NCBI RefSeq assembly: GCF_035084215.1
Contig: NC_090333.1
Span: 58,776,001 to 58,840,000, forward strand
Direction: 5' to 3'
DNA from: Heptranchias perlo
Lineage: Eukaryota
DNA length: 64,000 bases
This document shows positions 15,034 to 63,361 of this stretch, piece by piece. The notes beneath the pieces were generated by a model. The model did no database searches and had not been told where the DNA came from. It saw nothing but the letters and a program-made list of their open reading frames with translations. The translations under genes and the position numbers were made by a program. Position 1 is the stretch's first letter, and each line of letters opens with the position of its first letter.

Positions 15034-16229
15034 GTTAGCTAAGAAATGTTTAGATCTGTGAATGTCATTGTAATCTGGAACAGTAAGTCACAGAATCATC
15101 CTTATTACTCTTCCCTGAACCCTCTCCATTGGATCAATGTCCTTTTGAACATTGGATGCCCAAAACTCCACATAATAATCCAAATCTGACCTCAACAATG
15201 ATCTAAACACGGTAAATCTAAACTTGTTTGGATGTACAGTCAAACAATACCCTTGCAATGCATCCTGTATGTGACTTGCCTTGTTCTTAGCTTTACATTA
15301 GCAGGACACTTCCAGTGAGTTACTTCGAGTTACATTGAGTCAGCAGCACAGAAACAGGCTATTCGGCCCAACTGGTCTATGCCAGCATTTATGCTGCACA
15401 AGAGCCTTCTCCCACCCCTCTTCATCGAACCCTATCAGGATACCCTTCTATTCCTTTCTCCCTCATTTGCTTATCTAGCTTCCCCTTAAATGCATCGATG
15501 CTATTTGCCTCAACTATACCTTGCGGTAGCGAGTTCCACATTCTCACCACTCTTTGGGTAAAGAAGTTTCTCCTGAATTCCCTATTGGATTTATTTGTGA
15601 TTATTTGATATTTATGACCTCTAGTTTTGGACTCCCCACAAGTGGAAACATTTTCTCTATGCCGACCCTAACAAACCCTTTCATTATCTTAAAGACCTCT
15701 ATCAGGTCACCACTCAGCCTTCTCTTTTCTAGAGAAAAGAGCCCCGGCCTGTTCAGCCTTTCCTGGTAAGGATATCCGCTCAATTCTGGTATCATCCTCG
15801 TGAATCTTTTTTGCACCTTCTCCAATGCCTCTATATCCTTTTTACAATATGGAGACCAGAACTGTGCACAATACTCCAAGTGTGGTCCAACCGAGGTTCT
15901 ATACAAGTTTAAGGAATCTTACAACACCAGGTTATAGTCCAACAATTTTATTTTAAAATCACAAACTTTCGGAGATTATCCCCTTCGTCAGGTGAATGAG
16001 TGAAAGATTCTCAAATCGCATATCTTATATTAGGCTGGGACAGCATCACACCAATCAAAAGGTGTCGTTGTTGTTCAAACAGGCCAGTCACGGAGAACAG
16101 CACGTCCCAGTACACTGGATATACATTGTGTCAATTACACAGACAGAAAGAAAGAGACCCAAATGGCAGAGAGAGAGAGAGAGGGAATATTAAAACACAT
16201 AACTTTTTTTTCCCTTTTTGCTGGTGGGG

Positions 16230-16511
16230 TTACGTGTAGCGTGACATGAACCCAAGATCCCGGTTGAGGCCGTCCTCATGGGTGCGGAACTTGGCTATCA
16301 ACTTCTGCTCGACGATTTTGCGTTGTCGTGTGTCTCGAAGGCCGCCTTGGAGAACGCTGACCCGAAGATCAGTGGCTGAATGTCCTTGACTGCTAAAGTG
16401 TTCCCCGACTGGGAGGGAACCCTCCTGTCTGGCGATTGTTGCGCGGTGTCCGTTCATCCGTTGTCGCAGTGTCTGCATGGTCTCGCCAATGTACCATGCT
16501 CCGGGGCATCC
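16230..16511 (-). pseudogene. C-terminal fragment of PLE ORF (GIY-YIG endonuclease)
   Basis: GCPGAWYIGETMQTLRQRMNGHR...PVGEHFSSQGHS...RQRKIVEQKLIAKFRTHEDGLNRD shows the YIG, catalytic R, H, E and GLN motifs of PLE endonucleases. Confidence 0.9.
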
Positions 16512-16840
16512 TTAATAGCCAAGTTGATAGCCAAGTTGATAGCCAAGTTCCGCACCCATGAGGACGGCCTCAACCGGGATCTTGGGTTCATGTCACGCTA
16601 CACGTAACCCCACCAGCAAAAAGGGAAAAAAAAGTTATGTGTTTTAATATTCCCTCTCTCTCTCTCTCTGCCATTTGGGTCTCTTTCTTTCTGTCTGTGT
16701 AATTGACACAATGTATATCCAGTGTACTGGGACGTGCTGTTCTCCGTGACTGGCCTGTTTGAACAACAACGACACCTTTTGATTGGTGTGATGCTGTCCC
16801 AGCCTAATATAAGATATGCGATTTGAGAATCTTTCACTCA

Positions 16841-16878
16841 TTCACCTGACGAAGGGGATAATCTCCGAAAGTTTGTGA
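16841..16878 (+). ncRNA. Minimal type-I hammerhead ribozyme motif (mirror copy on minus strand at about 15959-15996)
   Basis: ttcac-CTGACGA-a-GGGG-ataat-CTCC-GAAA-gt-TT-gtga. Core boxes, stem II and stem I (tcac/gtga) are present; the stem III palindrome AGCT is mutated to AGTT. Confidence 0.75.
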
Positions 16879-19689
16879 TTTTAAAATAAAATTGTTGGAC
16901 TATAACCTGGTGTTGTAAGATTCCTTACATTTGTCCGCCCCAGTCCATCACCGGCATCTCCACATCATCTATACAAGTTTAACATAACTTCCCTGCTTTT
17001 CAATTCTATGCCTCTAGAAATGAACCCTAGTGCTTGGTTTGCCTTTTTTATGCTCTTATTAGCCTGTGTCATTACTTTTAGTGATTTACGTATCAACACC
17101 CCTAGATCCCTTTGCTCCTCTACCCCATTTAGATTCTTATTATTCAATCAATATGTGGCCTCCTTATTCTTCCTACCAAAATGCACAACCTCACACTTAT
17201 CTATATTGAAATTCATTTGCTAATTACATGCCCATTCTATAAGTTTATTAATGTCTTCTTGCATTTTAACGCATTCTTCCTTTGTATTAACTACACCCCC
17301 CAATTTGGTGTCGTCCGCAAATTTTGAAATTGTGCTTCCGATTCCTGAGTCCAAATCATTAATGTAAATTGTGAACAACAATGGTCTCACCACCGATCCG
17401 TGTGGAACACCACTTCCCACCTTTTGTCAGTCTGAGTAGCTACCCTTAACCCCTACTCTCTGTTTTCTGTTTTGTAGCCAGCTTGTTATCCATTCTGCTA
17501 CTTGTTCCCTGACTCCACGTGCTCTGACTCTAGTCATGAGTCTACAATGCGACCTTATCGAAGGCCTTTTGAAAATCCAAATATATTACATTAGCCTTGT
17601 CTACTCTTTCTGTTACTTCTTCAAAGAATTCAATAAGGTTGGTCAAGCATGACTTTCCCTTCTGAAATCCGTGCTGACTATTCTTTATTATATTTTTGTT
17701 TTCTAGATGTTTTTCTATTACATCTTTGAGTAAAGATTCCATTAACTTTCCTATCACCAACATTAAGCTAACTGGTTTAAAATTCCCTGGACTTGTTCTA
17801 TCTCCCTTTTTAAATATAGGAATCACATTAGCTGTCCACCTGTCCTCTGGTATTATTTCCTAAGGGAATAATGCCTCTGCTATCTCTTCCCTAACTTCTT
17901 TTAATATGCACGGATGCAATCCATCCGGACCAGGAGTTTTATCCTCTCTAAGTTTGATTACCTCTCCCCTTTCTATCTTAAATGTCTTAATATCTTTTTT
18001 GATCTCTTCTTCTAATGTCCACCTTGTTAGTCTCCCTGGTAAATACTGAGGCAAAGTAACTTCAATATTTCTGCTATTTCGCTGTCATTACCTGTGAGTT
18101 TATCTTTTGCATCCCTTAATGGCCCTATCCCTATCCTGATTTTTCTTTTGTTATTTATGTATCTGTAGAATACTTTACTATTTCTTTTTATATTCCTTGA
18201 TAGTTTAATTTTGTAGTTCCTCTTCGCTTTCCTAATTATGTTTTTTTTACTTTTTTCCTAACCTCTTTGTATTCCCTTTTGTCATCCTCTCCTTTATTGC
18301 CCGTGTACTTAGAATATGCCTTTGTCTTTAGTTTAAATTTTACCTTTATCTCTTTATTCATCCATGATGTTTCAATATTGGCTAGTTTGTTCTTAATTTT
18401 TAAAGGAATATATTTCTCCTGAACTCTGTTGATCACCATTTTAAATATTTCCCACTGCTGTTCTATCTCTTTGTCTGTCAAAATTTTTTCCATTTCACCT
18501 TCCCTAGTTCTATTCTCATCACCTCAAAATTAGCTTTATTCTAATCTATTACTTTGGTCTTTGTCTTACTTATATCTTTCCCAATCATTAGTTTAAACCT
18601 TATTATGTTGTGATCGCTATTGCCTAGATATTCCCCTATGCTTACTTCTCTTATCTGCTCCAGTTCATTTCCCATTACTAGATCCAGCGGTGATTCCTCT
18701 CTTGTTGGGCTTCTCACATACTGGTTGAGAACGGAATCCTGTACACACTGTAAAAACTCCATTCCTTTTTTCCCTTTCCCTACCTCTTTTTGACAGTTTA
18801 TTTGGGGGTAGTTGAAATCTCCCATGATTATTATTCAATGTTTTTTTACTCAATTCATAGATTTCCCACATATCTCTTCCTCCACTTCCCTTCCACTATT
18901 AGGTGGTCTGTAGAATATACCTATTAATGTGATTGATCCCTTCTTATCCTTTGTCTCAATCCAAATGGATTCTGTTTCTATCTTAATGTTACTTATGTCC
19001 CTTTTTTCTATTGTCATTATGTTGTCTCTAATTAGTACAGCTACCCCACCCCTCCTTCATCCTTCCCTATCCTTTCTAAATACGTTTTATCCTGCAATAT
19101 TTAACTGCCAATCCTGTTCTTTATGTAGCCATGTTTCAGTTACCCATACTACATCTGGCTCCTCACTGCAAATTATTGCCTACAGTTCCCCCATTTTGTT
19201 TTGGATGCTGTGCACATTGTTGTACAGGCAATTTAATTTGTTTTTAATAATTGTTCCCTTCAATTTATTTTTAACAGTCATTTTGTACTCATGTTCTAAA
19301 AATGTATTTGTTCCCTGACCGTTTATGTTACCCTTGTCTGACCTTTACTCTCATCTCCTGTTTCTTTTTTCTTCAGAGTTATGTTATTTTCACCAGATCC
19401 CCCACCCACTTCTCACTAGTTTAAAGTCCTATCCACAGCCCTATTTATCCTTTCTGCTAAGACACTGGTCCCATTCCGGTTCAGGTAGAGCCCGTCCCAG
19501 CGGCACAGCTCCAGTGAATGGTAAGTAACCACATCCAAATTCTTTTCCACTTTTGCTGATGCACATCTCTTCATCATGTGAACCTTTGATGTTTTCTGTT
19601 TTAAAGTACAATTTCTTACATTAATTTCTATTAAAATACATCTGCCATTCCTTAGGCCTATCCGATTGGTCTGGAATTCCTTGAAAGTT

Positions 19690-21720
19690 AGCACTTGCTG
19701 ACACACTGGGACTTACATTAGGGACAATCTATACGTGCAGGGGAGTTTATCGAAGTACGTCAGATGAGGGAACCATAAGCGTCAAACATTATTGGATTTG
19801 CCCCTAATTAATGACAAGTATTCAGCCAAGTTGGAGTATGGGAACATTTAAAAGGAAGGGTATGGATACAAAATGGGAGTGTTTTAAAGAAGTATTTTTC
19901 TTATATTGCCGAGGCAGTTTATCCCAGAAACAGATTAAGGGTTAAACAAGAGAATAAAATTAACATGGATGAAAGAGGATGTCATGGAAGGCATTAGCGA
20001 GAAAGAATGTACAAAATTCTGAAATGTGCAGAGTAGAAACTGAATAGGGAGAACTGTAACACAAAGCAAAGGAAGGCCAAGAAACTGATAAAAGACACAA
20101 ATGGGGAGCACAAGAGGAATATATCAGAAAATATAAAGGACAACAACAAAGCATTCCTTAAGTACATCAAATCTGAGAGAAGGGTATAGAGGGAGATGGG
20201 CTATTTACCAGTGGCAGTGCGGAGATAGTGTCTCAGGCCAGGGAAGTGGCAGAATTCCAAATCATTATTTTGTGACTGTGTTTACCTTTGAAAGGGGAGA
20301 GAGATGCTTGAGTTTGGGAGGAGTAGGAGGGAGAGGGCAGACTGGAAGGCAAATGGCATGTTGGCCTTTATTGCAAGGGGGTTGGAGTATAAAAGTAAGG
20401 AAGTCTTATTACAGTTGTACAGGACACTGGGGAGACCTCACCTGGAGTGCTGTGTACAGTTTTGGTCTCTTTATCTAAGGAAGGATATAATTGCCTTAGA
20501 GACGGTGCAACGAAGGTTCATTAGATTAATTCCTGGGATGAGATGTCCTTTGAAGAGAGGTTGAGCAGAATGGGCCTATACTCTCTGGAATTTAGAAAAA
20601 TGAGAGGTGATCTCATTGAAACATATAAGATTGTGAGGGGACTTGACAGGATAGATGCTGAGAGGCTGTTTCCCCTGGATGGAGAGTCGAGAATTAGGGG
20701 GCATAATAGCAGGATACGGGGTTGGCTATTCAAGACTGAGATGAGGAGGAATTTCTTTAAGCAGAGGATTGTGAATCTTTGGAATTCTCTACCCCAGAGG
20801 GCTGTAGATGCTGAGTCATTGAATATATTCAAGACTGAGATGGATAGATTTTTGGACTCTAGGAGAATCAAGGGATATGGGGATCGCGCAGGAAAGTGGA
20901 GTTGAGGTCGAAGATCAGCCATGATCTGATTGAATGGCAGAACAGACTCGAGGGGCGATATGACCTACTCCTGCTCCTATTTCTTACATTCTTCTGTAGA
21001 AAATTTTAGGAAGCTGAAGGTAAACAAGGCTCAAGGCTCTGACATTTTCCATCAAAGGTGCTGGTGGAATTAACTGAGGAAATTGCTAACCCCTTGACTC
21101 AAAGCTCAATGGAATTGGGTAACATCCTAATGGGTTGGAAAGTAGCAGATATGGCCCTCAATTTTAAAAAGGAGCAAGGGAGGAACACTCAAATTGCTGA
21201 CCTGAGCTCCTTACCTCAATTATATGGAAAGTCTTTAAGACTTAGATAGCAAATGGAAAAAACAGGTCTGATTAGAGAGATCCAACATGGGTTCAGAAGG
21301 GGCAGGCCATGTTTGATCAATTTACTCTGAGTTCTTTGAGGAGATTACAGATCTGGTGGATGTGTGTTATCTACATGGATTTCAGGAAAGCAGTTGATAT
21401 GGTCCCATATAATAGACTAATTCACAAGGTGGGTGCCCATTGGATAGATTAAGCTGAATGATGCATGGTTGAAAGGTAGATAACAGAAGGGGAGGCACAT
21501 GGGGAGTTGTCAGAGTAGAAAACAGTAAATTGCGATTTTTCTAAATGACTTGAAGAACAGAATATTGTCAAAGGTGTCTAAGTTTGTGGTTGACACTAAT
21601 TTGGTGCATAGTCAATAACGTGTGATAATCCAAAGGGATCTGGACGGACTAGATTAATGGGCAGAGGGGTGGCCGATGGAGTTCAACTTGGATAAGTGTA
21701 AAGTAATGAGATTAGAGATG
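19690..21720 (+). mobile_element. Old CR1 fragment with a younger CR1 3' end nested at about 20340-20995
   Basis: Younger copy reads RPHLECCVQFWS...RGDLIETYKI...WNSLPQRAV. Decayed RT motifs continue at 21000-21720. Confidence 0.8.
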
Positions 21721-22369
21721 TCACATTGTGGGGTTTCTGACTATTTATCCACGGAAGGATTTTGGTTAATAAATTAAATTCATCCCATGAGGATTAATCC
21801 ATAATACAGTGTCTGGGGACGTGAATTAAGGATCAACACATGAGGAATTAGGCCCAGCCCAAGCATCTATCTAGTATGGTATTTCTCACATTCCACATCA
21901 GGTTGAGACAGCAGATTCATTAAAACATCCCAGAAATTAGATTGGGTGATTACGCTTCACTGCTCAGGCCCAGTTAAAATACAGTTGTGATTCCATTGAC
22001 ATAATAGGACACCCATTTGTGTTAATTCACAAGGTTCCCGCTCTCTTCTAGCAGGCACCTCAGCCGCCTAACTGCAGTGAGCAGTTAAAATGGTGGCCAG
22101 AGGGATTCTAGTGGGGCAGTAAGGCACATTCTCCATTTTAAGCCTCCCGCTCTGTTCCCATCAGCCAGGGTGGGTTAAATCGGTCCCCTGATCTTTTAAC
22201 TTGTTTATTACTGCAAAAATATGAACAAAATATATTTCAAATAACTCAAAAAGCTTATGTTGCTCAATTACTCAAAACAGTTAATAATCATAATATGTGA
22301 AACCATCAGCCACCAGCTCATTTGACAACCAGCCCCTTACCATCATGCAGGGACTCCTTATATCCTATC

Positions 22370-23235
22370 ATGAGGCTATAGACAGGCTGGTGAAATGGGC
22401 GGACATGTGGCAGATGAAATTTAGCGCAGAAAAATGTGAAGCGATACATTTCGGTAGGAAGAACAAAGAGAGGCAATATAAACTAGAGGGCACAATTCTA
22501 AAAGGGGTAGAGGAACAGAGAGATCTGGGGGTATATGTGCACAAATCATTGAAGGTGGCAGGGCAGGTTGAGAAAGCGGTTAAAAAAGCATACGGGATCC
22601 TGGGCTTTATAAATAGAGGCATAGAGTACAAAAGCAAGGAAGTTGTGATGAACCTTTATAAAACACTGGTTCGACCACAACTGGAGTATTGTGTTCAGTT
22701 CTGAGCACTGCACTTTAGGAAGGATGTGAAGGCCTTAGAGAGGGTGCAGAAAAGATTTACTAGAATGATTCCAGGGATAAGGGACTTTAATTATGTGTAT
22801 AGACTGGAGAAGCTGGGGTTGTTCTCCTTGGAACAGAGAAGATTGAGAGGAGATTTGATAGAGGTATTTAAAATCATGAAGGGTCTAGACAGAATAGACA
22901 GAAACTGTTTCCATTGGTGGATGGGTCAAGAACCAGAGGACATAGATTTAAAGTGATTGGAAAAAGAACCAAAGGTGACATGAGGAAAAACTTTTTTACA
23001 CAGCGAGTGGTTAGGATCTGGAATGCACTGCCCGAGGGGGTGGTGGAGGCAGATTCAATCGTGGCTTTCAAAAGGGAACTGGATAAGTACTTGAAAAGAA
23101 AAAATTTGCAGGGCTACGGGGATAGGGTGGGGGAGTGGGACTAGCTGGATTGCTCTTGCATAAAGCTGGCACGGACTCGATGGGCCGAATGGCCTCCTTC
23201 CATGCTGTAACCTTTCTATGATTCTATGATTCCAT
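22370..23235 (+). mobile_element. CR1 LINE 3' portion
   Basis: WADMWQMKFSAEKCE...RPQLEYCVQF...WNALPEGVVEA; tail ttctatgattctatgatt. Confidence 0.93.
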
Positions 23236-24329
23236 GAGGGATGAAACACAAGCAGCCTTTGGCTTTAGAGGTTTGCTGGTTGCCCAAAGGAATTCCAGAA
23301 ATCTTAAGGTAACAACCAAAATGTTTAATTGAGTATTTTCAGACTCATTAATTAAACAACTGATTTGATTGAATTGCTAACTGAATGTTTCATTTTCATT
23401 AACTGTGTTTATTTGATGCAGCAACAAATTGTGAGTAGACTCGCTGTAATGAGTTCAGCATCACAGGGAACCAAGACTATCACCATTATTAACTCTCTGG
23501 TACATTCACAATGGATAAAAGCTCTTCTGAGGCCAACATTCACTTCAATATAATCCCCTCTGATATATGAACATCTACATTTTATTATAACTGCCTATCT
23601 AATAGAGCAACTATACAAATAGTGGCTTTTAACATGCATCTCCTTTCAGGCATATTGTTATATACTATATCTATATTACAGTCTTGCCTCCAGAGGCAGT
23701 GCCATGACATAAATGGGGTGTAGTCCATGCTTCCACAGGCAGAGAACAATACCACGAAAGGTGGTTTTGTTACCTGCATCCAGTGACCAAGTGCAGATGG
23801 TTGCAGCCCTTTGATTTTCATGTTGCTGGTCAGTACGAACACTCCTCTGACCTTGGTGAAGGTTCATGGTCAGAATGGTAGTGTTTGTGTTTGTGACTTT
23901 TGAACAATTGTGGACACGCAGTTCCAATATTCCAGTCTGTGCTCTGAATCCATCCCATAGTATAAATGGGAAGAATTTGGAACATAGGAAACATTGAAGC
24001 AATGGTGAGGGTCCATTGCAGTTAAATAGCACACAAAGGTAGTGGATTATTTGCCAATATCAGTCATGAACAGAATGTGAGAGCTTATGGGACTGTTGGC
24101 CAAAAGCATCTCAGTGGTGCTGATCAAAAGTATAAATCCATGGAGGAAAAGATACTGCCTCTTACGATCAAATATTAACGATAACTGCTAAGAGCAGGGT
24201 ACATAATCTCCCAAATTATAGCCTTTTATGCTTGTAGCTGTGCATATCCCCTTTTTTCCAATTTGTTCTCAGGAGCAAGGTCACATTCACTGCCCATTCC
24301 TAGTTGCCCTGATAGATTGAGAGGTGATA

Positions 24330-26690
24330 TCATAGTATCATAGTGTGGTACAGTACAGAAAAAGGCCATTTGGCCCATCGTGCCTGTGCCAACTCTTTGA
24401 AATAGCTATCCAATTCGTCCCAATCCACTGCTCTTTCCCCAGAGCCCTGTAAATATTTTCCCTTCAAGTATTTATCTAATTCCCTTTTGAAAATTACTAT
24501 TAAATCTGTTTCCACCATCCTTTCAGGCAGTGCATTCCACATTACAACAACTTACTGCGTAAAAAATGTTTCCTCATGTTGCCTCTGGTTCTTTTGCCAA
24601 TCACCTTAAATCTGTGTCCTCCATTTACTGACCCTCCTATCACTGGAAACAGTTTCTCCTCATTTACTCTATCAAAACCTTTATGATTTTGAACACTCTA
24701 TCAAATCTCCTCTTAATCTTCTCTTCCCCAAGGAGAACAGTCCCAGCTTTTCCAGTCTCTCCACATAACAGTCTCTCCCACAAATCTGGTATCATTCTAG
24801 TAAATCTCTTCTGCACCCTCTGTCAGGCCTTGACATCCTTCCTAAAGTGTGGTGCCCAGAATTGTACACAATACTCTAGCTGAGGCCTAACCAGTGTTTT
24901 ATAAAGGTTTAGCATAACTTCCTTGCTTTTGTACTTTATGCCTCTATTAATAAAGCCAAGGATCTCATATGCCTTTTTAACAGCTTGCTCAACTTGTCCT
25001 GCCACCTTCAAAGATTTGTGTACATACACCTCCAGGTCTCTCTGTTTCCGCACTCCCTTTAAAATTGTGCCATTTAGTTTATATTGCCTCTTCTCATTCT
25101 TTCTACCAAAATGTATCACTTCTCACTTCTTTGCGTTAAATTTCATCTGCCACGTGTCTGCCCATTTCACCAGTCTATATCCTCCCGAAGTCTATTATTA
25201 TACTCCACATTGTTAAATACATTTCTGAGTTTCGTGTTATCTGCAAACTTTGAAATTATACCCTGTACACCCAAGTCCAGGTCATTAATATATATCAAAA
25301 TAGCAATGATCCTAATACCGACCCCTGGGGAACACCACTCCGGTCTGAGCCAATTTTGTATCCATGCTGCCATTGTCCCTTTAATCCCATGGGCTTTAAT
25401 TTTGTTAACAAGTCTATTATGTAGTACTTTATCAAATGCTTTTTGAAAGTCCATGTAAACATCAACCGCACTACCCTCATCAATCCTCTCCGTTACTTCA
25501 TCAAAGAATTCAATCAAGTTAGTCAAACGTGATTTTCCTTTCACAAATCCGTGCTGACTTTCATTTATTAGCTCATACATTTCCAACTGCCAATTAATTT
25601 TGTCCCAGATTATTGTCTCTAAAAGTTTTTCCATCATCGACGTTAGGCTGACTGGCCTGTAATTGCCGGGTTTATCCCTCTCCCCTTTTTTGAACAGGGG
25701 TATGACTTTTACAATCCTCCAGTCCTCTGGCACCAGTCCCATATCTAAGGAGGATTGGAAGATTGTGGCCAAAACCTCCGCAATTTCTACCCTTACTTCC
25801 CTCAGCAACCTAGGATGCATCCTATCTGGACCGGGTGACTTTTCTACTTTGAGTATTGCCAACCTTTTCAGTACTTGCTCTTTATCTATTTTTATTCTCT
25901 CCAATATCACTACTACCTCCTTCTTTACTGTTACATTGGTGAAGTATTCATTTATTACCTAAGCCATATCCTCTGCCTCCACAAGAAGATCTTTTTTGTC
26001 TCTAATTGGACCCACCCTTTCTTTGACTACCATTTTACTATTTATATGTTTATAAAAGAGTTTCGTATTCCCTTTTATGTTAGCTGCTAATCTATTCTCA
26101 GAGCCCCTCTTACTTCCTTTTTTAGATCTCCTCTGTACTTTCTCTATTCAGCTTGGTTCTCTACTATATTATGAATCTTACATTTATCATAAGCCTCCTT
26201 TTTCTGTTTCATTTTAATCTCTGTACCTTTAGTCATCCAGGGAGCTATAGTTTTGGATGCCCTTCCTTTCCCCCTCCTGGGAACGTGACTACTCTGTACC
26301 CGAACCATCTCCTCCTTGAAGGCCTCCCATTGTTTAATTACTCTTTTGCCTACCAATTTTTGATTCCAATCCACCTGGGCAAGATCCCTTTTTAACTCAC
26401 TAATTAGCCCTCCTCCAGTTAAGTATTTTTACATTTGATTGTTCCTTGTCTATGTCCATAAGTATTCTAAACCTGGTGATATTATGATCATTGTTCCCCA
26501 AATGCTTCCCCACTGAAACATGCTCCACTTGCCCCATTTCATTTCCCAGAACTAGATCCAGCACTGCTTCCTTCCACGTTGGGCTGGAAACACACTGATC
26601 AAGAAAGTTCTCTTGTACACATTTCAGGAATTCCTCCTCCTCTTTGCCCTTTACACTGCTACTATCCCAGTCTATATTGGGATAATATCA
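24330..26690 (-). mobile_element. CR1 LINE (endonuclease end, RT, 3' UTR)
   Basis: 247-aa fragment with SPGPDRMHPR, PGNYRPVSLTS and DFQKAFDKV; frameshifted. Confidence 0.93.
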
Positions 26691-26699
26691 TTGCCGGTT

Positions 26700-27220: not shown

Positions 27221-27229
27221 ATAACCGTG

Positions 27230-27505
27230 GTTTGTTAGGCCACTTCAGAGGGCATTAACAGTCAACCACACAGTGTGGTACTGGAGTTATATGTAGGCCA
27301 GATTGGGTAGGGGTAGCAAGTTCCCTTCCCTGAAAGACATTAGTAACCCAGTTAGGCTTTTACAACAATCTGACAACTTTCATGGTGCCAGCCCACAAAT
27401 TACCAGCTTTACTGAATTCAATTTCGTAGCTTGCCATGGTAGGATTTAAACTCATAACCTCTGGTTTGCTAGGCCAGTTGCCATAACCACTGCACTATTG
27501 TACCC
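27230..27505 (-). mobile_element. SINE of the same family as the insert at 45650-45992
   Basis: Reverse complement shares ccatggcaag..., catgaaagttgtcagattgttgtaaaa and actaatgtctttcagggaagg with the 45.7-kb copy. Confidence 0.65.
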
Positions 27506-43702: not shown

Positions 43703-44252
43703 CACCTGCAAAACACAATAACACTCCAAAAAAATAACTGGCACTGTGCAGCATTTATCCTTAACTCGATACAGCACTAAAACTTCATAGATCATTGATC
43801 ATCATAGATCTTACAAATTATGTTCTGATTTATATCCTTAACGATAAAGAATTTTGGAAGAAAGTTTTCAAGTCATGTTTTGTGTATGTCCAAAATAAAT
43901 ATTAATTTACATTATTAAATATATTTTTATATAATGCAGCCATTTACCAATAAATTTTAAAGAGTAGCAAAATATTTATGTAAACTCAATGAACTGAAGA
44001 AATTATTAGAAATTAGTCAGTGGTGGACAATATTCATTTTCCAAAATAGAATTGCAGTACTATAAAACCTAACTCACTCAGCGTTCAAGAAAAACAGGCA
44101 AAATTTACAGTACCTTTTTTAATATCAAACTTAACTACTGATGGAGACACGTAACATGTAAATGTTCTCTGCGCATGCTCCAGATTATTGTACAGGTATC
44201 ATTGAGGCATATAGAACTGACACAGAAATTAAATGCAACCTATCTCATTTCA

Positions 44253-44458
44253 AATGTAAGGAGTCGTACAACACCAGGTTATAGTCCAACAGCTTTATTT
44301 AAAATCACAAGCTTTCGGAGCTTTGCTCCTTCGTCAGGTGACGAAGGAGCAAAGCTCCGAAAGCTTGTGATTTCAAATAAAGCTGTTGGACTATAACCTG
44401 GTGTTGTACGACTCCTTACATTTGTCCACCCCAGTCCATCACCGGCATCTCCACATCA
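44253..44458 (+). mobile_element. Miniature fold-back Penelope-like insertion in the CYB5RL 5' intron
   Basis: Arms 44251-44336 and 44339-44424 (86 bp, one mismatch, 2-nt loop). 34-nt tail ending ccggcatctccacatca. 12-bp TSD tatctcatttca at 44241-44252 and 44459-44470. Confidence 0.92.
44305..44341 (-). ncRNA. Minimal type-I hammerhead ribozyme motif
   Basis: Minus strand reads tcac-CTGACGA-a-GGAG-caaag-CTCC-GAAA-gc-TT-gtga: intact core, 4-bp stem II, palindromic AGCT stem III. Confidence 0.8.
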
Positions 44459-45484
44459 TATCTCATTTCAGCCTGGCATTCTTAATCTTCTCATCAAATA
44501 ATTTTCATTCTGTGTACTTTTCTGATAAGAATTGCTACTGTGAATCTTTGTTGGTCCCCTCTGCTACTTTATCTCGGTATATTTCACACCCCAGTACGCC
44601 TGAGCTAATGATCTAGCTGTCTGTATTGGATCCATTTCATATAGAACCAGTCGGCACTGCATCCATTTAATAAATTCTGATCAATGACACAGCAATCGGT
44701 GTACTAGTGTTACTAAGGGCAGCCCGTCAATAAATTACCTAATCCATAATTAACTTTCAAATCCAAAATCATTGGCAGGAAGCTTAAATTGCAGGAAAAT
44801 TCATTTATTATATATAGGTAGTCTACAGAATTATATAGAGTAGAATATTTATCAATGAAAATACAAACCTGTTAAAATTGTGATAATGAGCTAACTTATT
44901 CACTTCCATCACTTGTGGCTATCGTTTTTCGGACCGAAAACACCAGTGATGGGTACCAACACTGGATAGGGTAAGGACAAAAAAAAATGAAATTAATAAT
45001 TAAACAATAGCTTCTACAACAATTCTAAACAAGAACTACTACCAAATGATATTTACTAAAAATGAAAATTGCCAATATGAGTAATTTTTATTAACTTCAG
45101 CGATAGATGTTATTAATTCGGGCAACATACTTTATTCTGTAGGGAAATGGCTTGTCAGTATATTTTATAATCACCCCATTCTGTGACACATTCAATTCCC
45201 TGTAGCTGGGTCTCTGCCTTTACCACTTGAACTGTCCACTGCTTGCCCTGTGAAGACAGGATTGGCTTCTGTATACACCACCCACTAACAGCGTAACTCA
45301 GGTCAGGGAATTGTTGAGTGGGGAACTGAGAGCAGGAAGTTGCATGCTTGTGCTCTGTGACACAGCAACAAAAACAAACCATGTCACCTGAGGCTATACA
45401 GCCATTTCTACTCATGCTTCACAGGGTTCCAATATTTAATTTGTGGTAGACAGCTACTTAATGATTAATCATTTTTCTTTCCAA

Positions 45485-53609: not shown

Positions 53610-53960
53610 TGATGGAATGAAACACTTTCTGCTAGCTTGAAAGGTATTTGAAATAAGTTTTCACTGTCTCAATCTAGTTGCTAAAAGGTATGAGCCCACA
53701 GCACAAAACTGTCCCTTAATTGGCACAAAAAATGGTGAACTCACTTCAAGAGGTCGTAAGGATAACTTATGTACGAAGTATGAAATTTCACATTGATGTA
53801 GTTGGGGATGCTGTTCTGAGTTTGGGATGGATTGGAGGAAGCTTCAATTCAGCTGGCTGATATACTTGATCTTGGACTGTAAACTGACACTGGATGACAA
53901 AATGGAGGGGAAGTGAGAGACAGCGTTCTTGTTAATTTTTGTGATGTTTTTCCTTTTCAG

Positions 53961-54076
53961 CCCTGTGCTGTTGCAGGATCTCTTACACTTGTGCAGGACC
54001 CTGCAGCCTCGATTTCCCGCACTTGGAAACAGGATGCTGGCTGAAAATTACCGTGTGGCAGCAATATGGGAGAGAG
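53961..54076 (+). CDS. MRPL37: MRPL37 exon 3
   Basis: PVLLQDLLHLCRTLQPRFPALGNRMLAENYRVAAIWER. Boundaries ttttcag / gtcag, 116 nt, phases match neighbours. Confidence 0.92.
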
Positions 54077-55254
54077 GTCAGTCAGTGGGACTTCTGTTTG
54101 AGTAGCACTGTGTAAGAATGTCTTTGCTCATGGGCATCACCAGAAAAGGAAAAGGGGCAATCCTTTTCTAGGATGTATTCTCACCCACTGCAAATGCAAC
54201 ACTCTTCTGCGTCATTTCTAACAAAAACAAAATGTGGTTTTGCCCATTCATGGAAACTGTTGACAATATCCCACAAATACATTTGCTTACATGACATCAG
54301 TAATTGTACTTCAAAAATATTATTACTGGAAAGCTCAAACACTTCAATAAATACAGGTATATTATAATATGAACTGATTTTTTCATAAGATTAATTTACT
54401 AATTAATGTTTTTATGTGCTTAATATAAATTATTTCTATTTTTAATGCTTTGAAGTAAAAGCAAACAAAAAGAAATGAATCTTTAAGGCTGGTTTGGGCT
54501 GTATGTTTATTACTTTGCAGTGCCCGTAGGTATTTAATAAAAATAATTAGATTAGGCAGTTAGGAAACCTTTATTTCCTGCTCAGATTTTCTGGTTATGA
54601 TCAACATAAGTCGTTAGTTAATGTAACAGAAGGTACCAGGAACAGCCAGCTAATGATTAATCAAATATTATATTTTATATGTTTTGTAAAACAAAGAAGA
54701 ACCTGAATCAGAAACTGAGGACTCAACACCTAGATTTTAGTATAGCTTATGCATTAACCCTTTGAAGATTCCAGAAGCAATTTTTTCATCAAAATAATTG
54801 AATGGGTAATGGATATACACTTGAAAAGGAAAATTTTGAAGGGCTATGGAGAAAGAGCAGGGGAATGGGACTAATTGGATAGCTCTTTCAAAGGGCCAGC
54901 ACAGGCACGATGGGCTGAATGGCCTCCTGTGGTATATAATTCCATAGAAGTATTTTTCAAAACTTTGAGTAAGAAGCATTCAGTGCATTTACTGTGCCAA
55001 AAAATAAATATAGGGCAGTTAGGTGCCCTCCTGCTACCTCAGTTGACAAATGCACTTTCTATTGTGAAGTTGAGCCATATCGCCTTGAACGTTCCAGGTT
55101 TGAACCCAGTCTGTGCTGAGTTAGCTGATTATGATCTCAGCCAAGCACGCATTTATTGGCCATAGCACAGCTGAAAAACAGAAAAGATTCCTGTTATTCA
55201 GCAACTCTAACTGGAATGAAAAAGGAAGTAGGTACCCGAAAAGAAAAGCTAGGT

Positions 55255-55360
55255 TCAGTTTTGATGAAGGGTTTATACCCAAAATTATGATCTGTCCTCT
55301 CTATTTTCAGATGTTGATTGACCTGCTGTGTGCTTCCAGCATTATTCAGATTTTCAACAT
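55255..55360 (+). mobile_element. Decayed Penelope pseudo-LTR of a second family with a hammerhead relic
   Basis: tTGATGA-a-GGGT-ttat-ACCC-aAAA followed by cagatgttgattgacctgctgtgtgcttccagcatt. From memory this resembles a common elasmobranch Penelope terminal repeat. Confidence 0.55.
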
Positions 55361-55369
55361 TTGAAGTTT

Positions 55370-56250
55370 TTCATAGAATCATAGAAAGTTACAGCACACA
55401 AGGAGGCCATTCGGCCCATCGTGTCTGTGACGGCCGAAGAAGAGCTATCCAGCTTAATCCCACTTTCCAGCACTTGGTCCGTAGCCCTGTAGGTTACGGC
55501 ACTTCAGGTGCACATCCAAGTACTTTTTAAATGAGTTGAGAGTTTCTGCCTCTACCACCCTTTCAGGCAGAGAGTTCCAGACCCCCACCACCATCTGGGT
55601 GAAAAAAATTCTCCTCTGCTGCCCTCTAATCCTTCTCCCAATTACTTTAAATCTATACCCCTGGTTATTGACACCTCTGCTAAGGGAAATATGTCCTCCC
55701 TATCCACTCCATCTGGTCCAGTCATAATTTTATATACCTCAATTAAATCTCCCCTCAGCCTCCTTTGTTCCAAAGAAAACATCTCCAGACTATCCAATCT
55801 TTCTCATAGCTAAAATTCTCCAGCCCTGGCACCATCCTCGTAAATCTCCTCTGTCTCCTCTCTAGTGCAATCACATCTTTCCTGTAATGTGGTGACCAGA
55901 ACTGTACGCAGTACTCAAGCTGTGGCCTAACCAATGTTTTATACAGTTCTAGCATAACCTCCCTGCTCTTATATTCTATGCCTCAGCTAATAAAGGAAAG
56001 TATCCCGTATACCTTTTTAACCACCTTATCTACCTGTCCTGCTACCTTCAGGGATCTGTGGATATGCATTCCAAGGTCCCTTTGTTCCTCTACACCTCTC
56101 GGTATCCGCCTATTTATTGTGTATTCCCTTGCTTTGTTTGCCTTCCCCAAATGCATTACCTCACGCTTCTCTGGATTGAATTCCATTTGCCATTTTTTTG
56201 CCCACTTGACCAGTCCATTGAAATCTTCCTGCAGTCTACAGCTTTCCTCA
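55370..56250 (-). mobile_element. CR1 LINE 3' portion in MRPL37 intron 3
   Basis: WAKKWQMEFNPEK...RPQLEYCVQFWSPHYRKDVIALER; catagaatcatagaa tail. Confidence 0.92.
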
Positions 56251-56385
56251 CCCATGAAGCTGTACCCAAGCAAGGAGTCAGCACCCTCAGGAAAGGGAAA
56301 ATTATAGGGCAGCTGATTGTACAAGACTGTGGCTCAAGTCCTTTTGTCAGTTCACTGTTTAATGAATATTTTCTTCTCTTTGCAG

Positions 56386-56571
56386 AGTCTGACATATTCC
56401 GGGTTTGTGGTTTGAATGGAATCCTCTTGAGTAGTAAGCAGCCTTTACCAGCAGTAGCAGGAAAAGAAGAGATATTAAGCACTGAAAGCCACGCCCTCCC
56501 GTCCTTCTATCCCATCTCTCCTAACATTGACCTGCAGCAAACACATGTCTATGAAGTACGCAATGATACAG
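56386..56571 (+). CDS. MRPL37: MRPL37 exon 4
   Basis: (E)SDIFRVCGLNGILLSSKQPLPAVAGKEEILSTESHALPSFYPISPNIDLQQTHVYEVRNDT(G). Boundaries tttgcag / gtggg, 186 nt. Confidence 0.94.
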
Positions 56572-57036
56572 GTGGGTTTTTTGATAGAAGGTTCTTTGGT
56601 ACAAGTCCTGTAGTGTGACTGGCAGGAAATAGTTTCTTATCCATCATTCACCAATCAATGGGGAAGGTGAAAAAAAATCAGTCTACCAGCATTGTTCACA
56701 TGCACCTTAGCACTCATTTAGAGAGTTAAATTGGCAAAACCCTGAGTATCACTTGCTTGTTTGTGCTGTTAATGGGGACTAGTATGGTGAAGGGACTGTA
56801 GGAAGGAAAGAAATATCCCTAATGGTGCATAAAAGGGATAAATGTCATCTGAAAATTATTTTAAAATTTCAGTTTAATAATGTTATTTTTGAGAAAATGA
56901 AAGTGTATTTTAATTTTAGACAATCAAGCACTCTCAAGTCAGTGGGGTTTACTTGCAGTGTTCTTTACGTAGTTAGCACCTCCTACATATATATTCCTCT
57001 CACCCATTTACAAATCTCTTAATTGTGTTGATACAG

Positions 57037-57191
57037 GTTTCCGTGATGGGTACCCTTTTCCTCACGCGCACACACTGTATATTACAGAGTCCTCTATTAC
57101 CATGGCAAGGTTCAAACCAGAACCACTGAGGGCCAAGATGATCATGTTCACATTTGCAAATGCCCTAGCAAGGGCCAAGCTGCTTTATGGT
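57037..57191 (+). CDS. MRPL37: MRPL37 exon 5
   Basis: (G)FRDGYPFPHAHTLYITE...LRAKMIMFTFANALARAKLLYG. Boundaries atacag / gtaagt, 155 nt. Confidence 0.94.
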
Positions 57192-57832
57192 GTAAGTGTT
57201 GGTGTCTCTGGTACAAATAGTGCAATCTGTATCAGTTAAAGTAGGAATTCCACTTATAATTAATATGTTTGTGTGGTTAAAAGTACTTGAATTTGGTAGT
57301 GCAATGGCATTCAACTTTAGCTCCGTACCATTTAGTGGTATGGTGCCAATGGAAGCTGTTGCATCTCCCAGTTGGGGAGCAGGAAAAATCAGAAGGGAAC
57401 GTCCCACCTGGCATCTACTAGCAAATCATTGCAGGAAGCATGGCTGCGGCTCACTGAAACCCCTTTATCTGTAAGTTAAGTGTGGTGGATAAAGGGGTTT
57501 ACTCAGATAAACAGTCCCATGAGGGCAAGAAAAATTGGAATTTCCTAAAAACACAATCTATATCTAACCTAACAGGCTTTTAATGCACAGCTCAGCTAAA
57601 ATATTCTGTATAATTATGTTCAGTTGTTTATAGTGTGATATATTATAGAGAACTTTGAATTTAATGTCTGACTTCTCTTCACATAATTGAATGTAGCTGA
57701 AATGATCTGGAATCATGTTTATTGTACTGATTGTTTCATCTGTAATGTATGGAATAGAATAAAACATTGTTTTGCAACTGTTGAGAGCTGATAGCAGGTG
57801 CACCTGCTAACTTACTATTTTCTACCTCACAG

Positions 57833-58036
57833 GAGGAGCCAAAGGTGTTGGACAATCCTATCACAGTACAATGTATTGCTACGAATGGAAGGATGTTCCA
57901 GTTCCTGGTGTTACAGCTAAATACCACAGATCTACAATCAAATGATGGTGTGAAAAACCTAATTTGGTTGGACCAAGATCAGCTGCTGTACGACTATGCA
58001 AAGTGCCTCCCAACAATCAGAAAGAAAATAGTCCAG
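57833..58036 (+). CDS. MRPL37: MRPL37 exon 6
   Basis: EEPKVLDNPITVQCIATNGRMFQFLVLQLNTTDLQSNDGVKNLIWLDQDQLLYDYAKCLPTIRKKIVQ. Boundaries ctcacag / gtaagt, 204 nt. Confidence 0.95.
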
Positions 58037-58566
58037 GTAAGTACAAGTGGAATTGTCAGGGAAGTGATGCTTAATAAAAGGTTTCAGCAATGGCAGTGAA
58101 ACATTTTTGTATCAGTGTTTACCTGCCCTGCACGCTGATGGCGGCAGCCTTCCATTACCTCACCCTAATAGCTAGTCCTCGAGAGGCATGTCATTGGGTT
58201 AGTTCTTATGTGGATGTCACACTTTACAGCAGTGTAGGAACCTTGGCTGATTTTTTTTCTCTCGCTTGCTCTCCTAGCCCTATTGTATTGTCTCACCATC
58301 ACAATGACTGAGCTCAGCCTACTCAGCTGAGACCAAGGACTGAACTTACTGTGCATTTAACTGAGCACTTTGATCAGTTTCAATGAGCTAGTAAACTTGG
58401 ACCTTATTGTAAGTAAGCTTTCTTCATGGTTTGCATCATATGAGTCCCACACTAAGTTAATTGGACAAGGTTTCTGCAGAAGAGTTGTAAGATTTTTTGT
58501 TTCCAAAACTTGTAGATCATTGTGTTATCTGCGTGTGTTCAGAGATTGATGGTTTCTTCTCTCTAG

Positions 58567-58644
58567 GTTCCTGCTGGGCTGTCTGGATATTGTCCAGAGA
58601 CATTCAGTAAGTTCCTTGCCTTGTACTTGCACGGAGCTGTATAG
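58567..58644 (+). CDS. MRPL37: MRPL37 last exon
   Basis: VPAGLSGYCPETFSKFLALYLHGAV*, matching the known FLALYLHGA C-terminus. The seven exons sum to 1248 nt (415 aa + stop). Confidence 0.94.
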   Translation, partial: VPAGLSGYCPETFSKFLALYLHGAV

Positions 58645-60340
58645 AATCACATGGACAACAGTTCACTCTTATCATGAAGAACTGTTACTTACCTGGAAAT
58701 GTCAGGGAAACAAAGGAGCTTGGTTGGATACCAGCAGAAGAAATAGACTGTAAACTGATATGAAGTACAAACAACAGTGTAGACATAGACAAAATCAATA
58801 TTGCATGGACTTTTATAAAGAGACTTTTATGAGCTGAGACATTAGTGTATGTTCAAGACTATGATCTTCATTTCAAGATGGAAACTTTGTGGATAATGCT
58901 ACTTTATTAAATATTTTTTTCACAATCTGTGTAATGTTCATTTGTACCATAATGCCCAGTTTCAGCCCAAGACAGCATCTGTACAACAGAAACAATGCAC
59001 TAACTAAAGCAAGTGCCAAGATAAATGTATTCCTTTTATATGTTGTAAAAAAGTCCATCTCTAATATTTTAGCATTTTCAATTTCAGTTGCTAAACAAAA
59101 TTGCAACTTAATTCATGTGAAAAACTCTAGCCCCTCGTATAATGTCGCATCCCTATTAAAATTCATATGTCGGCCATGTGCTCCATTGAAAATTGCTATG
59201 TAAACATTTTTTATTGGAATTCCAATATGTCCCAATATTAATATATCCACAGTTACCTGTCATGCAACTAAGTCATACTTTAATTGGATTTCCACTGTTC
59301 ACCTGGACATATCACCATGTGCTGCTGTGTTATCATTTCCCTACAACTCACTCAAGTGCTTGCTGAAAACAATATCTGCCATTTTTCTTCAATGAAGTTT
59401 CTAATGTCCAAAATAAGGTTTAACAAAAAAATTTAAATTGTTTACATATTTCACAACAGGAATTAAGTTTGTCTATTAATTTACTTTCTAATACCTTTAT
59501 TAAAGTTTCTACCTGAAGGCCTCAGCCAGATGTGTGGGGCCATTTCTCAGGACGCATCAGTACCAAACTGCTAAACTGCTGCAATATTCTTCTTTAGCTT
59601 CTAGTAGTTTGTACGGTTTTTCAGAATTATGGAGAGAAAGGCTAAAAGACAAGCTTTAGTCAAGTAAAGTTTGTATTAGCCTCTTTTTAAAAAAAAAATA
59701 CCCATGTATGAGTAAAATGTACACTAAATACACACTTGTTGTAGCTTGTGTTCTATACATATCAAAGTGTATTAAGTGGATAGTCTTTACTTATCCTAAT
59801 TTAGGATCATTTTTCAAAAAATGAATTTTGAAGCCAAAAGCAAACCTAATTATTGCCTGTATTTTATTAACTGTTAAAGTATAAAAATTTTAATTACTGA
59901 CATCTGTGAATCAGACACAGCTAGAGGCAGACATATGTTATGCTAAAACGGCATATGGGATCCTGGGCTTTATAAATAGAGGCATAGAATACAAAAACAA
60001 GGAAGTTATTCTAAACCTTTATAAATCACTAACTTTGGGCACCACACTTTAGGAAGGATGTCAAGGCCTGGGAGAGGGTGCAGAGGAGATTTACTAGAAT
60101 GGTACCAGGGATGAGAGACTGGCGACACTGGGATTTTCACCTTAGAGAAGGTTAAGGGGAGATTTAATAAAGGTGTTCAAAATTATGAAGGGCTTAGATA
60201 GGGGGAAATTGTCTCCACTGGCAGGAGGGACGACAACCCGAGGACACAGATTTAAGATAATTGGCAGAAGAGCCAGGCTGGTTATTTTTTTTAAACACAG
60301 CAAGTTGTTACAATCTGGAATACACTACCTGAAAGGATGA

Positions 60341-60583
60341 TGATGTGGAGATGCCGGTGATGGACTGGGGTTGACAATTGTAAACAATTTTACAACACCA
60401 AGTTATAGTCCAGCAATTTTATTTTAAATTCACAAGCTTTCGGAGGCTACCTCCTTCCTCAGGTGAACGATGTGGAAATCGTTTCCACATCGTTCACCTG
60501 AGGAAGGAGGTAGCCTCCGAAAGCTTGTGAATTTAAAATAAAATTGCTGGACTATAACTTGGTGTTGTAAAATTGTTTACAAG
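60341..60583 (-). mobile_element. Miniature fold-back Penelope-like insertion nested in a CR1 LINE
   Basis: Perfect arms 60378-60478 and 60482-60582 (101 bp, loop tcg). 37-nt tail tgatgtggagatgccggtgatggactgggg.... TSD tgaaaggatga at 60330-60340 and 60584-60594. Confidence 0.92.
60493..60531 (+). ncRNA. Minimal type-I hammerhead ribozyme motif (mirror copy on minus strand at 60429-60467)
   Basis: ttcac-CTGAGGA-a-GGAGG-tag-CCTCC-GAAA-gc-TT-gtgaa: 5-bp stem I, 5-bp stem II, AGCT palindrome. Confidence 0.82.
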
Positions 60584-63361
60584 TGAAAGGATGATGGAAG
60601 CAGATTCATTAGCAACTTTCAAAAAGGAATTGGATATGTACGAAAAGGAAAGATTTCCAGGGCTATGGAGAAAGGCAGGGGAGTGAGACTAATTGGATAA
60701 CTCTTTCAAAGAGCCAGCACAGACATGATGAACTGAATGGCCTCCTTCTGTGCTGTAAGATTCTAATATTCTACATAGTATCTTCATCCTAAATAGATTT
60801 TTTTAATATAAAAACAAGCTGGTTTAATTTTGAAAGTAAGTAAAACCTCTGAGGGACACTAATAGAAGAGGAAATAGGTTATGAGAGGGTATCTGACAGA
60901 AGTGAGAGAGAAAGAAACACAGACAACAGACACAGGTAAGAGAGATATGCCACTAGTTGTGAATTAAAATCTAGGGTGGTAAGAAGCCAGAGAAAACTTT
61001 CCCTTCCCCAGGAGAGGCTTTACACCTATGCCTCACAGGAAACATGGAGTGGTCCATAATCTGCTACTTAAGGTTCTGTGGCTATTAAATAGTTAAACAG
61101 CCTGTGGACCCAAATATTGCCGTCTCACAGCGTGGTCAAGATATGCACAGCTAGCCTCAGCTAGGTAAAGATACTTTTTAAGAAGGCTAGGTTTTGGCTT
61201 AGGGAACTGTGTATATTTCTCAGAGCACACTCAAGACTGTAGATATGTTGCTAGATGGCCTTGCAGGATAATTTTTTTTGACTGCCCATTAATTTCTCTT
61301 TAGATATGATTGGAATGTGGCAGGTGGCATAATACCATTTGCCAGCAGTGCCCTCTGCTTCCTTTTGATCAATTCCATTGGTAGTAACATAAGGTTGAGA
61401 GTGGCACAGCAATCAATGATGTAATTGTGAACAGCTTGGCATAGCTCTTGCTTTCCATTGACCATGTTCAACACTATTGGGAAACCTTGGGCATCTGGAC
61501 AGTTACCTTCAGCAAAAAAAAAAGGCAGTTCTTGGGTGTCTTGGACAAGATGCTGATCTCACAATGAAGGGTGATTACCAGATCAGAGTGGCTATAAGCG
61601 ATCGAGCCACAAGAAAAATATTGCTGACCACAAAACCAAAGACTGGTGATATGTTCTTATGAGTCTAACCTAAGAAATAGGAGGAGTAGTAGGCCATAAG
61701 CCCCCTGGAGCCTGCTCTGCCATGGCTGATCTTTGACCTCAATGGCAATTGACTCAATGGCCATTGATATGGCTAACGATTTTCTTGCTTTCCCAGCTGA
61801 AGCTAGACCCTGCCAGCCATTCAGTAACTTAGCACTCCCTGTTAAGGTAACTGCAGAGTGAAGGAGAGATGCTAAGCAAATCTTTGCAGTAGCTCTATCA
61901 CTCTGCAGGGCAAGCAAGAGCTGTTGCAAAGATAGATGATGCAGGACTCCCCTGAGGCCAGGAAGAATTGGGACAGAACACAATGCTGAGTTGGTATCCA
62001 ACCCAATAAGCCATAGTAAGACTCAGCTGCATAGAGATTAGAAAAGCTGGTGGAGCATGCTGTACAAATAGGGGTCTTAACTAGTTTGCTGGAAGGGACA
62101 TCGTGTTGCCAAAATGGTATTTAAATTCTTAAAAAGATGTCTTGGAACTGTCCTTCTGAGGCTGAATAAGACTCAGACATACATACTCTTAGAAGTTCAG
62201 AGTGTAGCCGTGCTTTCATCGCAGTGAGCTGAAAACTACCGTGGAATCTCATATATAGTTCTTTGAGTTGTGATATCAGATGATTTGGAAGCCCGCCAAG
62301 TAATCAGCGAAGAACGTGCTGGATTTCACTTGAGGAATTCGTAGGGCAGGTGGTGACTTTATACAAGATCACAGAGCATTTTAAGTTTCAGAGCAAATCC
62401 ACTTACATTGCTTTCATCAATTTTCAAAAGATTTTTGACCTCATGCCTGGAAGCTATGGGTGTACAGTGCCAAATCTTGGACTTTATCCAGATACATACT
62501 TGAGCAACCAAGATACAGCCAAGGGTTGCTGAGACACTCACTAAACCTCTCTCAAGAGGATTGCCTTTTCACTATCATCTTCAATAATGTGTTAGGTAGG
62601 TGTGCAAGGGACAGACTCTCAATTGGCCAGGTATTTCTAAAAATACTTTTCATTGATGATATCCCCTCAGCTGGGGCTGTAATGCACTCTACCACAATCT
62701 TTAACAATAGACTAAGCAGTAGGAAATAGTGGTAGGTGCATAGCTTAAGAGGAGCTCTAAAAAGTATCGATTGGACACAGACAACCAGGACTGTGCAGAG
62801 AAGGAATGAAGGGTATTTTACTGTTATTGAAAAAGGCCAAAGTCCCACTGTAGGTTGTCACATACAGGACGTGTGCAGGCAGTTATCTTCAAGTTCAGAA
62901 CTCCGAGGTAAGCATGCACAATCCAGGACCAAACTGTGAATGGAGTTATGGCAAAAAGGGGAAGCAGTTCTGGCCTACACTTGAGTACCTTGGAGGGGGA
63001 TTCAGCCAGCAGGCAGGTACAACTCTGTTTCAGGACCCAGATGAACTAGTTGATGAGTGAACCTTATATACAGCACCAGGTCTGTCATCGAGAACACAAA
63101 GGTGGCTGGCACAGCTCAAGCTGCTTTGTGCCAGTCAGTGAAGGCACAAGTCCACTGTATAACTGATAAGGAAAGTCAAGAGTTTAGATAACAGCTACTG
63201 GAAGGTATTACCCAGAGGCTGGGCATAAGAACACATGCTCAGAGATCCAAGGCTTAGTACTTATAATTGGGTTGCAGAGTGTAAGCAGCTGCTGAAACAC
63301 AGTACCTCTAACGGGTAGAATCACCATTTGATAAAGTATGGGCACATCTTACTCTTTTTAA

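Follow-up and report, generated by a model that had tools for sequence, protein, structure and literature searches.

Insertions of endonuclease-containing (EN+) Penelope-like elements (PLEs) are described as an inverted, 5′-truncated copy combined with a one-sided tail of 30–40 bp (PMC8557442, PMC3846280, PMC2377424, PMC8969392), and a 34-bp repeat is described for Penelope of Drosophila virilis (PMC2377424). The formation of tandem and inverted PLE structures is named as unresolved by Craig et al. 2021 (PMC8557442), and self-priming is favoured by Arkhipova et al. 2013 (PMC3846280). Three insertions of this kind, termed copies 1, 2 and 3, are found in a 64,000-nucleotide (nt) stretch of the genome of the shark Heptranchias perlo (assembly GCF_035084215.1, contig NC_090333.1, positions 58,776,001 to 58,840,000), which is referred to here as the window.

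Pairs of hammerhead ribozyme motifs on opposite strands, 100–700 bp apart, have been published, and minimal hammerheads alone are reported to have little activity (PMC4209133). The Poseidon element PAc of Anolis nicks and extends both strands; its reverse transcriptase (RT) starts internally at two sites that span the tail, and cleavage by the hammerhead is not required (Frangieh et al. 2024, PMC11167929). The main text of that paper does not treat inverted units. Retrozymes of the non-LTR kind (LTR, long terminal repeat) are made up of tandem repeats in head-to-tail order (Li et al. bioRxiv 10.64898/2026.07.22.740005).

The three units in the window are almost certainly by-products of a young Neptune/Nematis-type PLE, i.e. 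the feature is real and its kind is known. They probably arose from two complementary DNAs (cDNAs) that ran off the 5′ leader end of the element's RNA.

Structure of the three insertions

Each of the three insertions is bounded by a target site duplication (TSD) and displays an inverted copy, a direct copy and an unpaired tail of about 34 nt that ends in CCGGCATCTCCACATCA. This is the design proposed in a first-pass annotation of the sequence, and the TSDs and the alignment of the arms bear it out. The arms are 402 nt at 100% identity in copy 1, 86 nt at 99% in copy 2 and 104 nt at 99% in copy 3. Copies 2 and 3 contain no coding sequence, also as first described. Copy 1 is not a pure fold-back; its inverted arm has a length of about 600 nt and extends to the GIY-YIG coding region, and its direct arm measures about 435 nt. 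The 228-nt “spacer” of copy 1 represents the longer inverted arm, where the end of a GIY-YIG domain is encoded, together with a short, presumed slippage duplication. The three copies belong to three subfamilies and their stem II sequences differ.

The source element

The 28-nt tail was used as an exact query against the 3.25 Gb genome (G000, where the window is on C9), with the reversed 28-mer as control. There are 37,692 exact matches to the tail and 0 to the control, thus the repeat is not due to chance and the insertions are as abundant as had been supposed. The autonomous PLE that the first reading called for is also present: intact open reading frames (ORFs) of 902 amino acids (aa) with the same tail are found in tandem arrays at loci L082 and L098 (RVT_1, E = 3e-10), and the tail ends directly before the ATG of the ORF. 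The autonomous elements are 99–100% identical to short hairpins, and several hairpins are 100% identical to long copies.

The arrays at L081/L082, L096 and L098 (G000:C1:3.12-4.47 Mb) consist of units of about 3.08 kb that are 99–100% identical. The PLE family is very young. Locus L073 (G000:C21:15331200-15339500) is a near-full-length unit that carries an inverted 5′ copy. Both of its arms display a deletion of about 22 nt in the endonuclease region which is missing from B-type copies, thus the two arms come from the same source.

The 902-aa ORF has the canonical EN+ PLE organization, a single ORF with an RT plus a GIY-YIG endonuclease at the C terminus. Inspection of the translation by eye shows a CCHH endonuclease motif, with two Cys residues flanked by the GIY- and YIG-like motifs and, downstream, two His residues. 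The GIY-YIG profile match of the copy 1 fragment is weak (E = 0.012) and misses the Pfam cut-off; some homologs carry PF01541. Tandem or partial-tandem copies at L073, L081/L082 and L098 display the pseudo-LTR (pLTR). In the L082 translation the linker before the endonuclease reads C-x4-C-xx-C, which agrees with the CX2-5CxxC pattern of Neptune and Nematis. By the linker and CCHH criteria for PLE clades (PMC8557442) the element is of Neptune/Nematis type. Assignment to Poseidon (the Penelope/Poseidon clade) was considered and rejected since the linker zinc finger, which that clade lacks, is present. The nearest named proteins are uncharacterised proteins of sharks (80–96%) and turtles (~44%).

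In TSD, inverted plus direct copy, tail of about 34 nt, ORF with RT and C-terminal GIY-YIG, and tandem arrays, the units resemble the published EN+ PLE insertions. They differ from the accounts given in the available text of PMC8557442, PMC3846280 and PMC2377424 in having a dominant leader-length class that ends at a promoter-like site, and in having chimeric arms. No account of leader-length PLE hairpins, of two-RNA or chimeric arms, or of a shark Neptune family was found in the literature searched, a search whose scope did not extend to subscription papers, Dfam or Repbase.

Architecture of insertions in the genome

A position-ordered sample was formed from 95 of the first 100 listed tail matches. 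A head-to-head inverted arm is present in 57 of these tail events (47 short, 6 long and 4 assigned by hand). Four are tail-to-tail and make up two units. No inverted arm is seen in 34, and for 16 of these the sequence covered upstream is only about 1.5 kb. The junction between the arms was resolved automatically in 53 units and 52 of the junctions are distinct. To within 5 nt, 24 units are symmetric; of the others, 20 have a longer inverted arm and nine a longer direct arm. Microhomology is found at 18 junctions, four are blunt and 31 have inserts.

In a set of 203 tail events with 129 inverted units, a TSD of at least 8 nt is found in 116 units; its length is 12 nt in 58 and 13 nt in 29. The TSDs are 70% A+T. 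The last C of the tail, immediately before the ATG of the ORF, is taken as position 0, and positions are numbered backwards from it. The outer end of the inverted arm is at positions −33 to −38 in 93 of 116 units. One arm ends at the ATG and the other about 34 nt earlier.

The junction of copy 2 is the most recurrent of those tested, with 527 exact occurrences in the genome, or about 1.4% of the tail count. Thirty sampled loci with this junction display 14 different stem II strings, some of which differ by mutation. The tail is on the short arm at 17 of these loci, on the long arm at 12 and on neither at one. The junction is a recurrent join at the mini-palindrome TCA-CC-TGA and not a clone. 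Fold-back points vary and the copy 2 junction spans subfamilies and both polarities. This speaks against a self-propagating mini-element, which a shared fold-back point would have pointed to in the scheme of the first-pass annotation.

Several loci depart from the common form. Inverted units with tails on both arms are present at L055/L056 (G000:C1:2376877-2377559) and L096 (C1:4438525-4438710), and single copies without a tail are also found, e.g. L208, L212 and L214; these indicate that either RT start can serve either nick. The junctions of L087, L088, L089, L044, L110 and L119 contain 40–180 nt of non-element or locally copied sequence. Palindromes without a spacer and with arms of about 360–830 nt are present in the assembly at L063, L068, L012, L018 and L025. 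The same hairpin is found every 15.4 kb at G000:C1:15341348, 15356716 and 15372134 in a segmental tandem, and one of the three was counted.

A sharp 5′ boundary

Of 148 arm ends, 69 are at positions −115 to −140. In group F, the group of copy 3, the interval −134 to −139 contains the ends of 58 of the 103 arms at risk (0.094 per nt), while the following 40 nt account for only eight of 45 (0.0044 per nt). The mode is the A of TCATTT at −137, which is 29 nt past a TATA-like box, and the boundary is alike in tailed (29 of 57) and tail-less arms (29 of 58). In group B, 18 of 59 arms end at −129 to −132 (boundary at −130), about 30 nt past the TATA-like box of that group. The peak positions of the two groups differ (Fisher P = 8e-7). 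The last group B match and two segmental duplicates were left out.

In long copies of the subfamilies examined, the TATA-like box is 35–46 nt before the C3 residue of the hammerhead. The boundary is 12 nt upstream of stem I in group F and 5 nt upstream in group B. Its distance from C3 is 17 nt in group F and 10 nt in group B, whereas its distance from the TATA-like box stays at about 29–30 nt. Genome-wide counts were obtained with degenerate patterns of 24 specified bases. For group F these are 20,785 (−129), 12,377 (−136), 4,608 (−144) and 4,614 (−160), and for group B 13,362 (−125), 7,750 (−160) and 6,955 (−194). These counts are in line with the boundaries of the sampled arms.

A spacing of about 30 nt from the TATA box and an initiator (Inr) consensus are general features of promoters. 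From these we infer that the 5′ boundary is probably the transcription start. The base before +1 is G in 835 cases and T in 340 (2.5x), and two of four non-inverted cases display the TSD followed by one G. Hammerhead-cleaved RNA was also considered as the main template and rejected, as only two of 148 arm ends are at −94 to −88, where the cut site is at −92.

Probable formation from two cDNAs

Bases from the start of the ORF fill the interval from tail to TSD in 23 of the 28 units where it is at least 3 nt long, thus the template continues into the ORF as in PAc. Among 138 TSD-bounded units, a count filtered on TSD and indels, eight have arms with at least two differences at shared variant sites, where about 1.1 units are expected. 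Locus L211 has two different, well-formed stem II variants within one TSD.

The mechanism that we favour, and consider probable, is as follows. Two cDNAs, each primed on a different side of a staggered cut, would copy towards the 5′ end of the RNA and would then be joined head to head by microhomology or short inserts. The two 3′ ends would correspond to two internal RT start sites such as those of PAc. An mRNA that starts in the upstream pLTR presents its own leader of about 130 nt as the first substrate, so that the short class (copies 2 and 3) would be the 5′ leader copied twice. Longer units such as copy 1 would come from tandem read-through RNAs primed at the downstream pLTR-ORF junction. 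The hammerhead would be a passenger, predicted to be masked in the hairpin RNA. In LINE-1 twin priming both target nicks prime cDNA, microhomology joins the ends and an inversion results; there, upstream sequence is inverted, whereas here the 3′ end is duplicated, starting 34 nt from it.

The units are like PAc in having two 3′ ends that span the tail, a template that extends into the ORF and AT-rich targets (PMC11167929). They are unlike it in the CX4CxxC linker and in the downstream start, which is at the ATG here and 111–118 nt into the ORF in PAc.

On balance, though with less assurance than the mechanism itself, we consider that the tens of thousands of copies record how PLE inverted insertions form: two RT subunits would act at opposite nicks and at two internal starts, sometimes on different RNAs, with run-off at the capped 5′ end. 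The leader would thus be the commonest integrated piece, and the hairpin centres would map the transcription start of each subfamily to the base.

A number of observations weigh against leader run-off from two cDNAs. Placement of the start site leans on general motif spacing, and the signal of a cap-derived G is weak, as for 19 of 30 Gs the other arm could have been the template. Copies of the L109 type have the Inr A at TATA+27. The TATA box is degenerate in subfamilies of the copy 1 and copy 2 types, where the ends (−116 to −128) are near the edge of stem I. Some loci of the group F sample were selected with the −136 and −144 patterns, and the subfamilies covered differ from one degenerate pattern to another. 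No shared-variant difference is found in 119 of 138 arm pairs, which fold-back or a single RNA predicts likewise; some discordant sites are of CpG type, and later gene conversion could also yield chimeric arms. The internal promoter of D. virilis Penelope is TATA-less (PMC2377424), and the transfer from PAc is an analogy only, since PAc is a Poseidon element with RT starts inside the ORF.

Hammerhead motifs

Hammerhead motifs were located with a purpose-made descriptor, and those of copy 1 required a looser pattern. An Rfam scan gave no hammerhead family at E ≤ 1, only chance matches to miRNA hairpins. A motif had been proposed for every arm. This holds for both arms of copy 1 and, with whole minimal hammerheads found by the descriptor, for both arms of copy 3 and the inverted arm of copy 2. 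In copy 2 the tailed arm starts at U4 (GG/TGACGA), so that C3 and the 5′ strand of stem I are missing from it. Both hammerheads of copy 1 read GAAAGTTT and not the palindromic GAAAGCTT. The AATAAA noted after the motif is indeed present, 11 nt downstream of the predicted cut site. Stem I pairs and stem II pairing is kept across subfamilies, which is consistent with a minimal hammerhead in the pLTR.

The motifs share with the minimal hammerheads of PMC4209133 a stem I of 4 bp, an additional nucleotide between A9 and G10.1, the lack of stem III and a palindromic 15.2-16.2. Unlike the opposite-strand pairs described there, those analyzed here are within TSD-bounded units, often less than 100 bp apart and often incomplete in one arm. 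Core motifs, counted without demanding stem I pairing, number two in 20 of the 47 short units, one in 16 and none in 11. The position of the hammerhead near the hairpin centre results only from the motif starting 5–12 nt into the leader.

Folding predictions give one hairpin each for copies 2 and 3, with −155 to −192 kcal/mol, from either strand. Since the antisense arm is always transcribed first and a single long hairpin is predicted, the motif is expected to be masked in the RNA. A ribozyme presented in both transcription directions, as first suggested, is thus probably self-cancelling on the folding model, and we read the hammerheads as passengers in these units.

Alternative explanations

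The first-pass annotation left a choice between stereotyped abortive integrations and a distinct, self-propagating class of retrozyme-like elements. The varying junctions agree with the former. The units do resemble animal retrozymes in being non-coding, hammerhead-bearing and derived from a PLE pLTR (bioRxiv 10.64898/2026.07.22.740005). Short inverted units are the commonest form (47 of 95 tail events) and one exact junction is present 527 times, which could suggest a non-autonomous hairpin element using both hammerheads. However, retrozymes are defined as direct tandem repeats in the available text of that source, whereas copies 1–3 are single head-to-head units with no sign of their own propagation. 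In addition, 52 of 53 junctions differ, the recurrent one is found with many stem II variants and in either polarity, two core motifs are kept by only 20 of 47 short units, and the stable predicted hairpin would mask the motif. The architecture and opposite-strand hammerhead pairs were, moreover, already published in the sources cited above. A self-propagating class is largely refuted and very improbable. At L090 (G000:C1:4014776 and 4014911) two leader-length units of different subfamilies lie head to tail, 135 bp apart; this pair is possibly the seed of a tandem retrozyme-like array. An assembly artefact is scarcely credible given that 116 of 129 inverted units carry TSDs of at least 8 nt, whose lengths have a sharp mode at 12–13 nt, and given the constant tail asymmetry of about 34 nt, the mismatches between arms and the inserts at junctions.

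In fold-back self-priming, a single cDNA or an antisense template would fold at a short palindrome and copy itself, and resolution by the endonuclease would leave the tail asymmetry. Arkhipova et al. 2013 proposed fold-back or an antisense template (PMC3846280), and it accords with the 24 of 53 units that are symmetric within 5 nt, with microhomology at 18 of 53 junctions, with recurrent junctions on mini-palindromes (e.g. TCA-CC-TGA, AAA-CA-TTT) and with the identity of most arm pairs at variant sites. But fold-back of a tail-bearing cDNA permits only a longer direct arm and is contradicted by the counts, i.e. 20:9 in favour of the inverted arm among the 53 units and 17:12 at the copy 2 junction, where 17 of 30 loci have the forbidden polarity. 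Self-copying cannot yield arms of two subfamilies, and perfect palindromes with zero loop exist (L059, L296, L297). As a general explanation fold-back is quite unlikely, although it could operate in a subset of units. It is also unlikely that the boundary of two-cDNA by-products reflects the hammerhead fold, through stalling of the RT or processing of the RNA, and not the transcription start. All peaks are within about 17 nt of C3, and in subfamilies of the copy 1 and copy 2 types they are near the edge of stem I. Yet the distance to C3 varies by group (17 and 10 nt) while that to the TATA-like box is constant at about 29–30 nt, and there is no peak at the cut site.

Features of the window

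The target of copy 1 is presumably a remnant of a CR1/L2-like repeat (repeat family D1). The window as a whole is dense in what we take to be CR1/L2-like and SINE-like repeat remnants (families D1-D20). A 240-bp element similar to miniature inverted-repeat transposable elements lies between runs of T and of A at window positions 12948–13187; its terminal inverted repeats are 74 nt long (95%), and it is unrelated to the PLE.

Table 1. Positions in the window of the parts of the three PLE insertions.
Feature	Position	Strand
Copy 1, left TSD, 15 nt	15898..15912	none
Copy 1, inverted tail-less arm, ~600 nt (pLTR, 3′ untranslated region (UTR), C-terminal GIY-YIG coding region)	15913..16513	-
Copy 1, minimal type-I hammerhead motif of inverted arm, GAAAGTTT variant	15959..15995	-
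Copy 1, junction insert (~20 nt), extra units of a 12-nt internal repeat, probably by slippage	16514..16532	+
Copy 1, direct arm (ORF end, 3′ UTR, pLTR, tail)	16533..16967	+
Copy 1, hammerhead motif of direct arm; TATA-like box and TCATTC Inr-like site upstream	16842..16878	+
Copy 1, right TSD	16968..16982	none
Copy 2, left TSD, 12 nt	44241..44252	none
Copy 2, inverted tail-less arm, extends to −123; whole hammerhead at 44341-44305	44253..44341	-
Copy 2, direct arm and tail; begins at U4 of the core after 3-nt TGA microhomology; hammerhead incomplete	44339..44458	+
Copy 2, right TSD	44459..44470	none
Copy 3, tail-side TSD, 13 nt, overlaps tail end	60330..60342	none
Copy 3, direct arm and tail; starts at −137, on the A of the TCA+1TTT site; hammerhead at 60466-60430	60341..60479	-
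Copy 3, junction insert of two bases; G (minus strand) directly before the +1 A	60480..60481	none
Copy 3, inverted tail-less arm from −136; hammerhead at 60494-60530	60482..60583	+
Copy 3, second TSD	60584..60596	none

Significance

As a class of element the hairpins are ordinary. Their value is as a natural experiment on a poorly understood step, the integration of PLEs, and what they add to published work is likely the mechanism, i.e. the boundary, the polarity symmetry and the chimeric arms. The subfamily-specific boundary, taken with the other two, allows the two-cDNA model to be put to the test in the in vitro PLE system that already exists. If leader run-off from two cDNAs is correct, it would account for most genomic minimal hammerheads lying in short stubs, and many long perfect-hairpin RNAs would be predicted wherever such stubs are read through.

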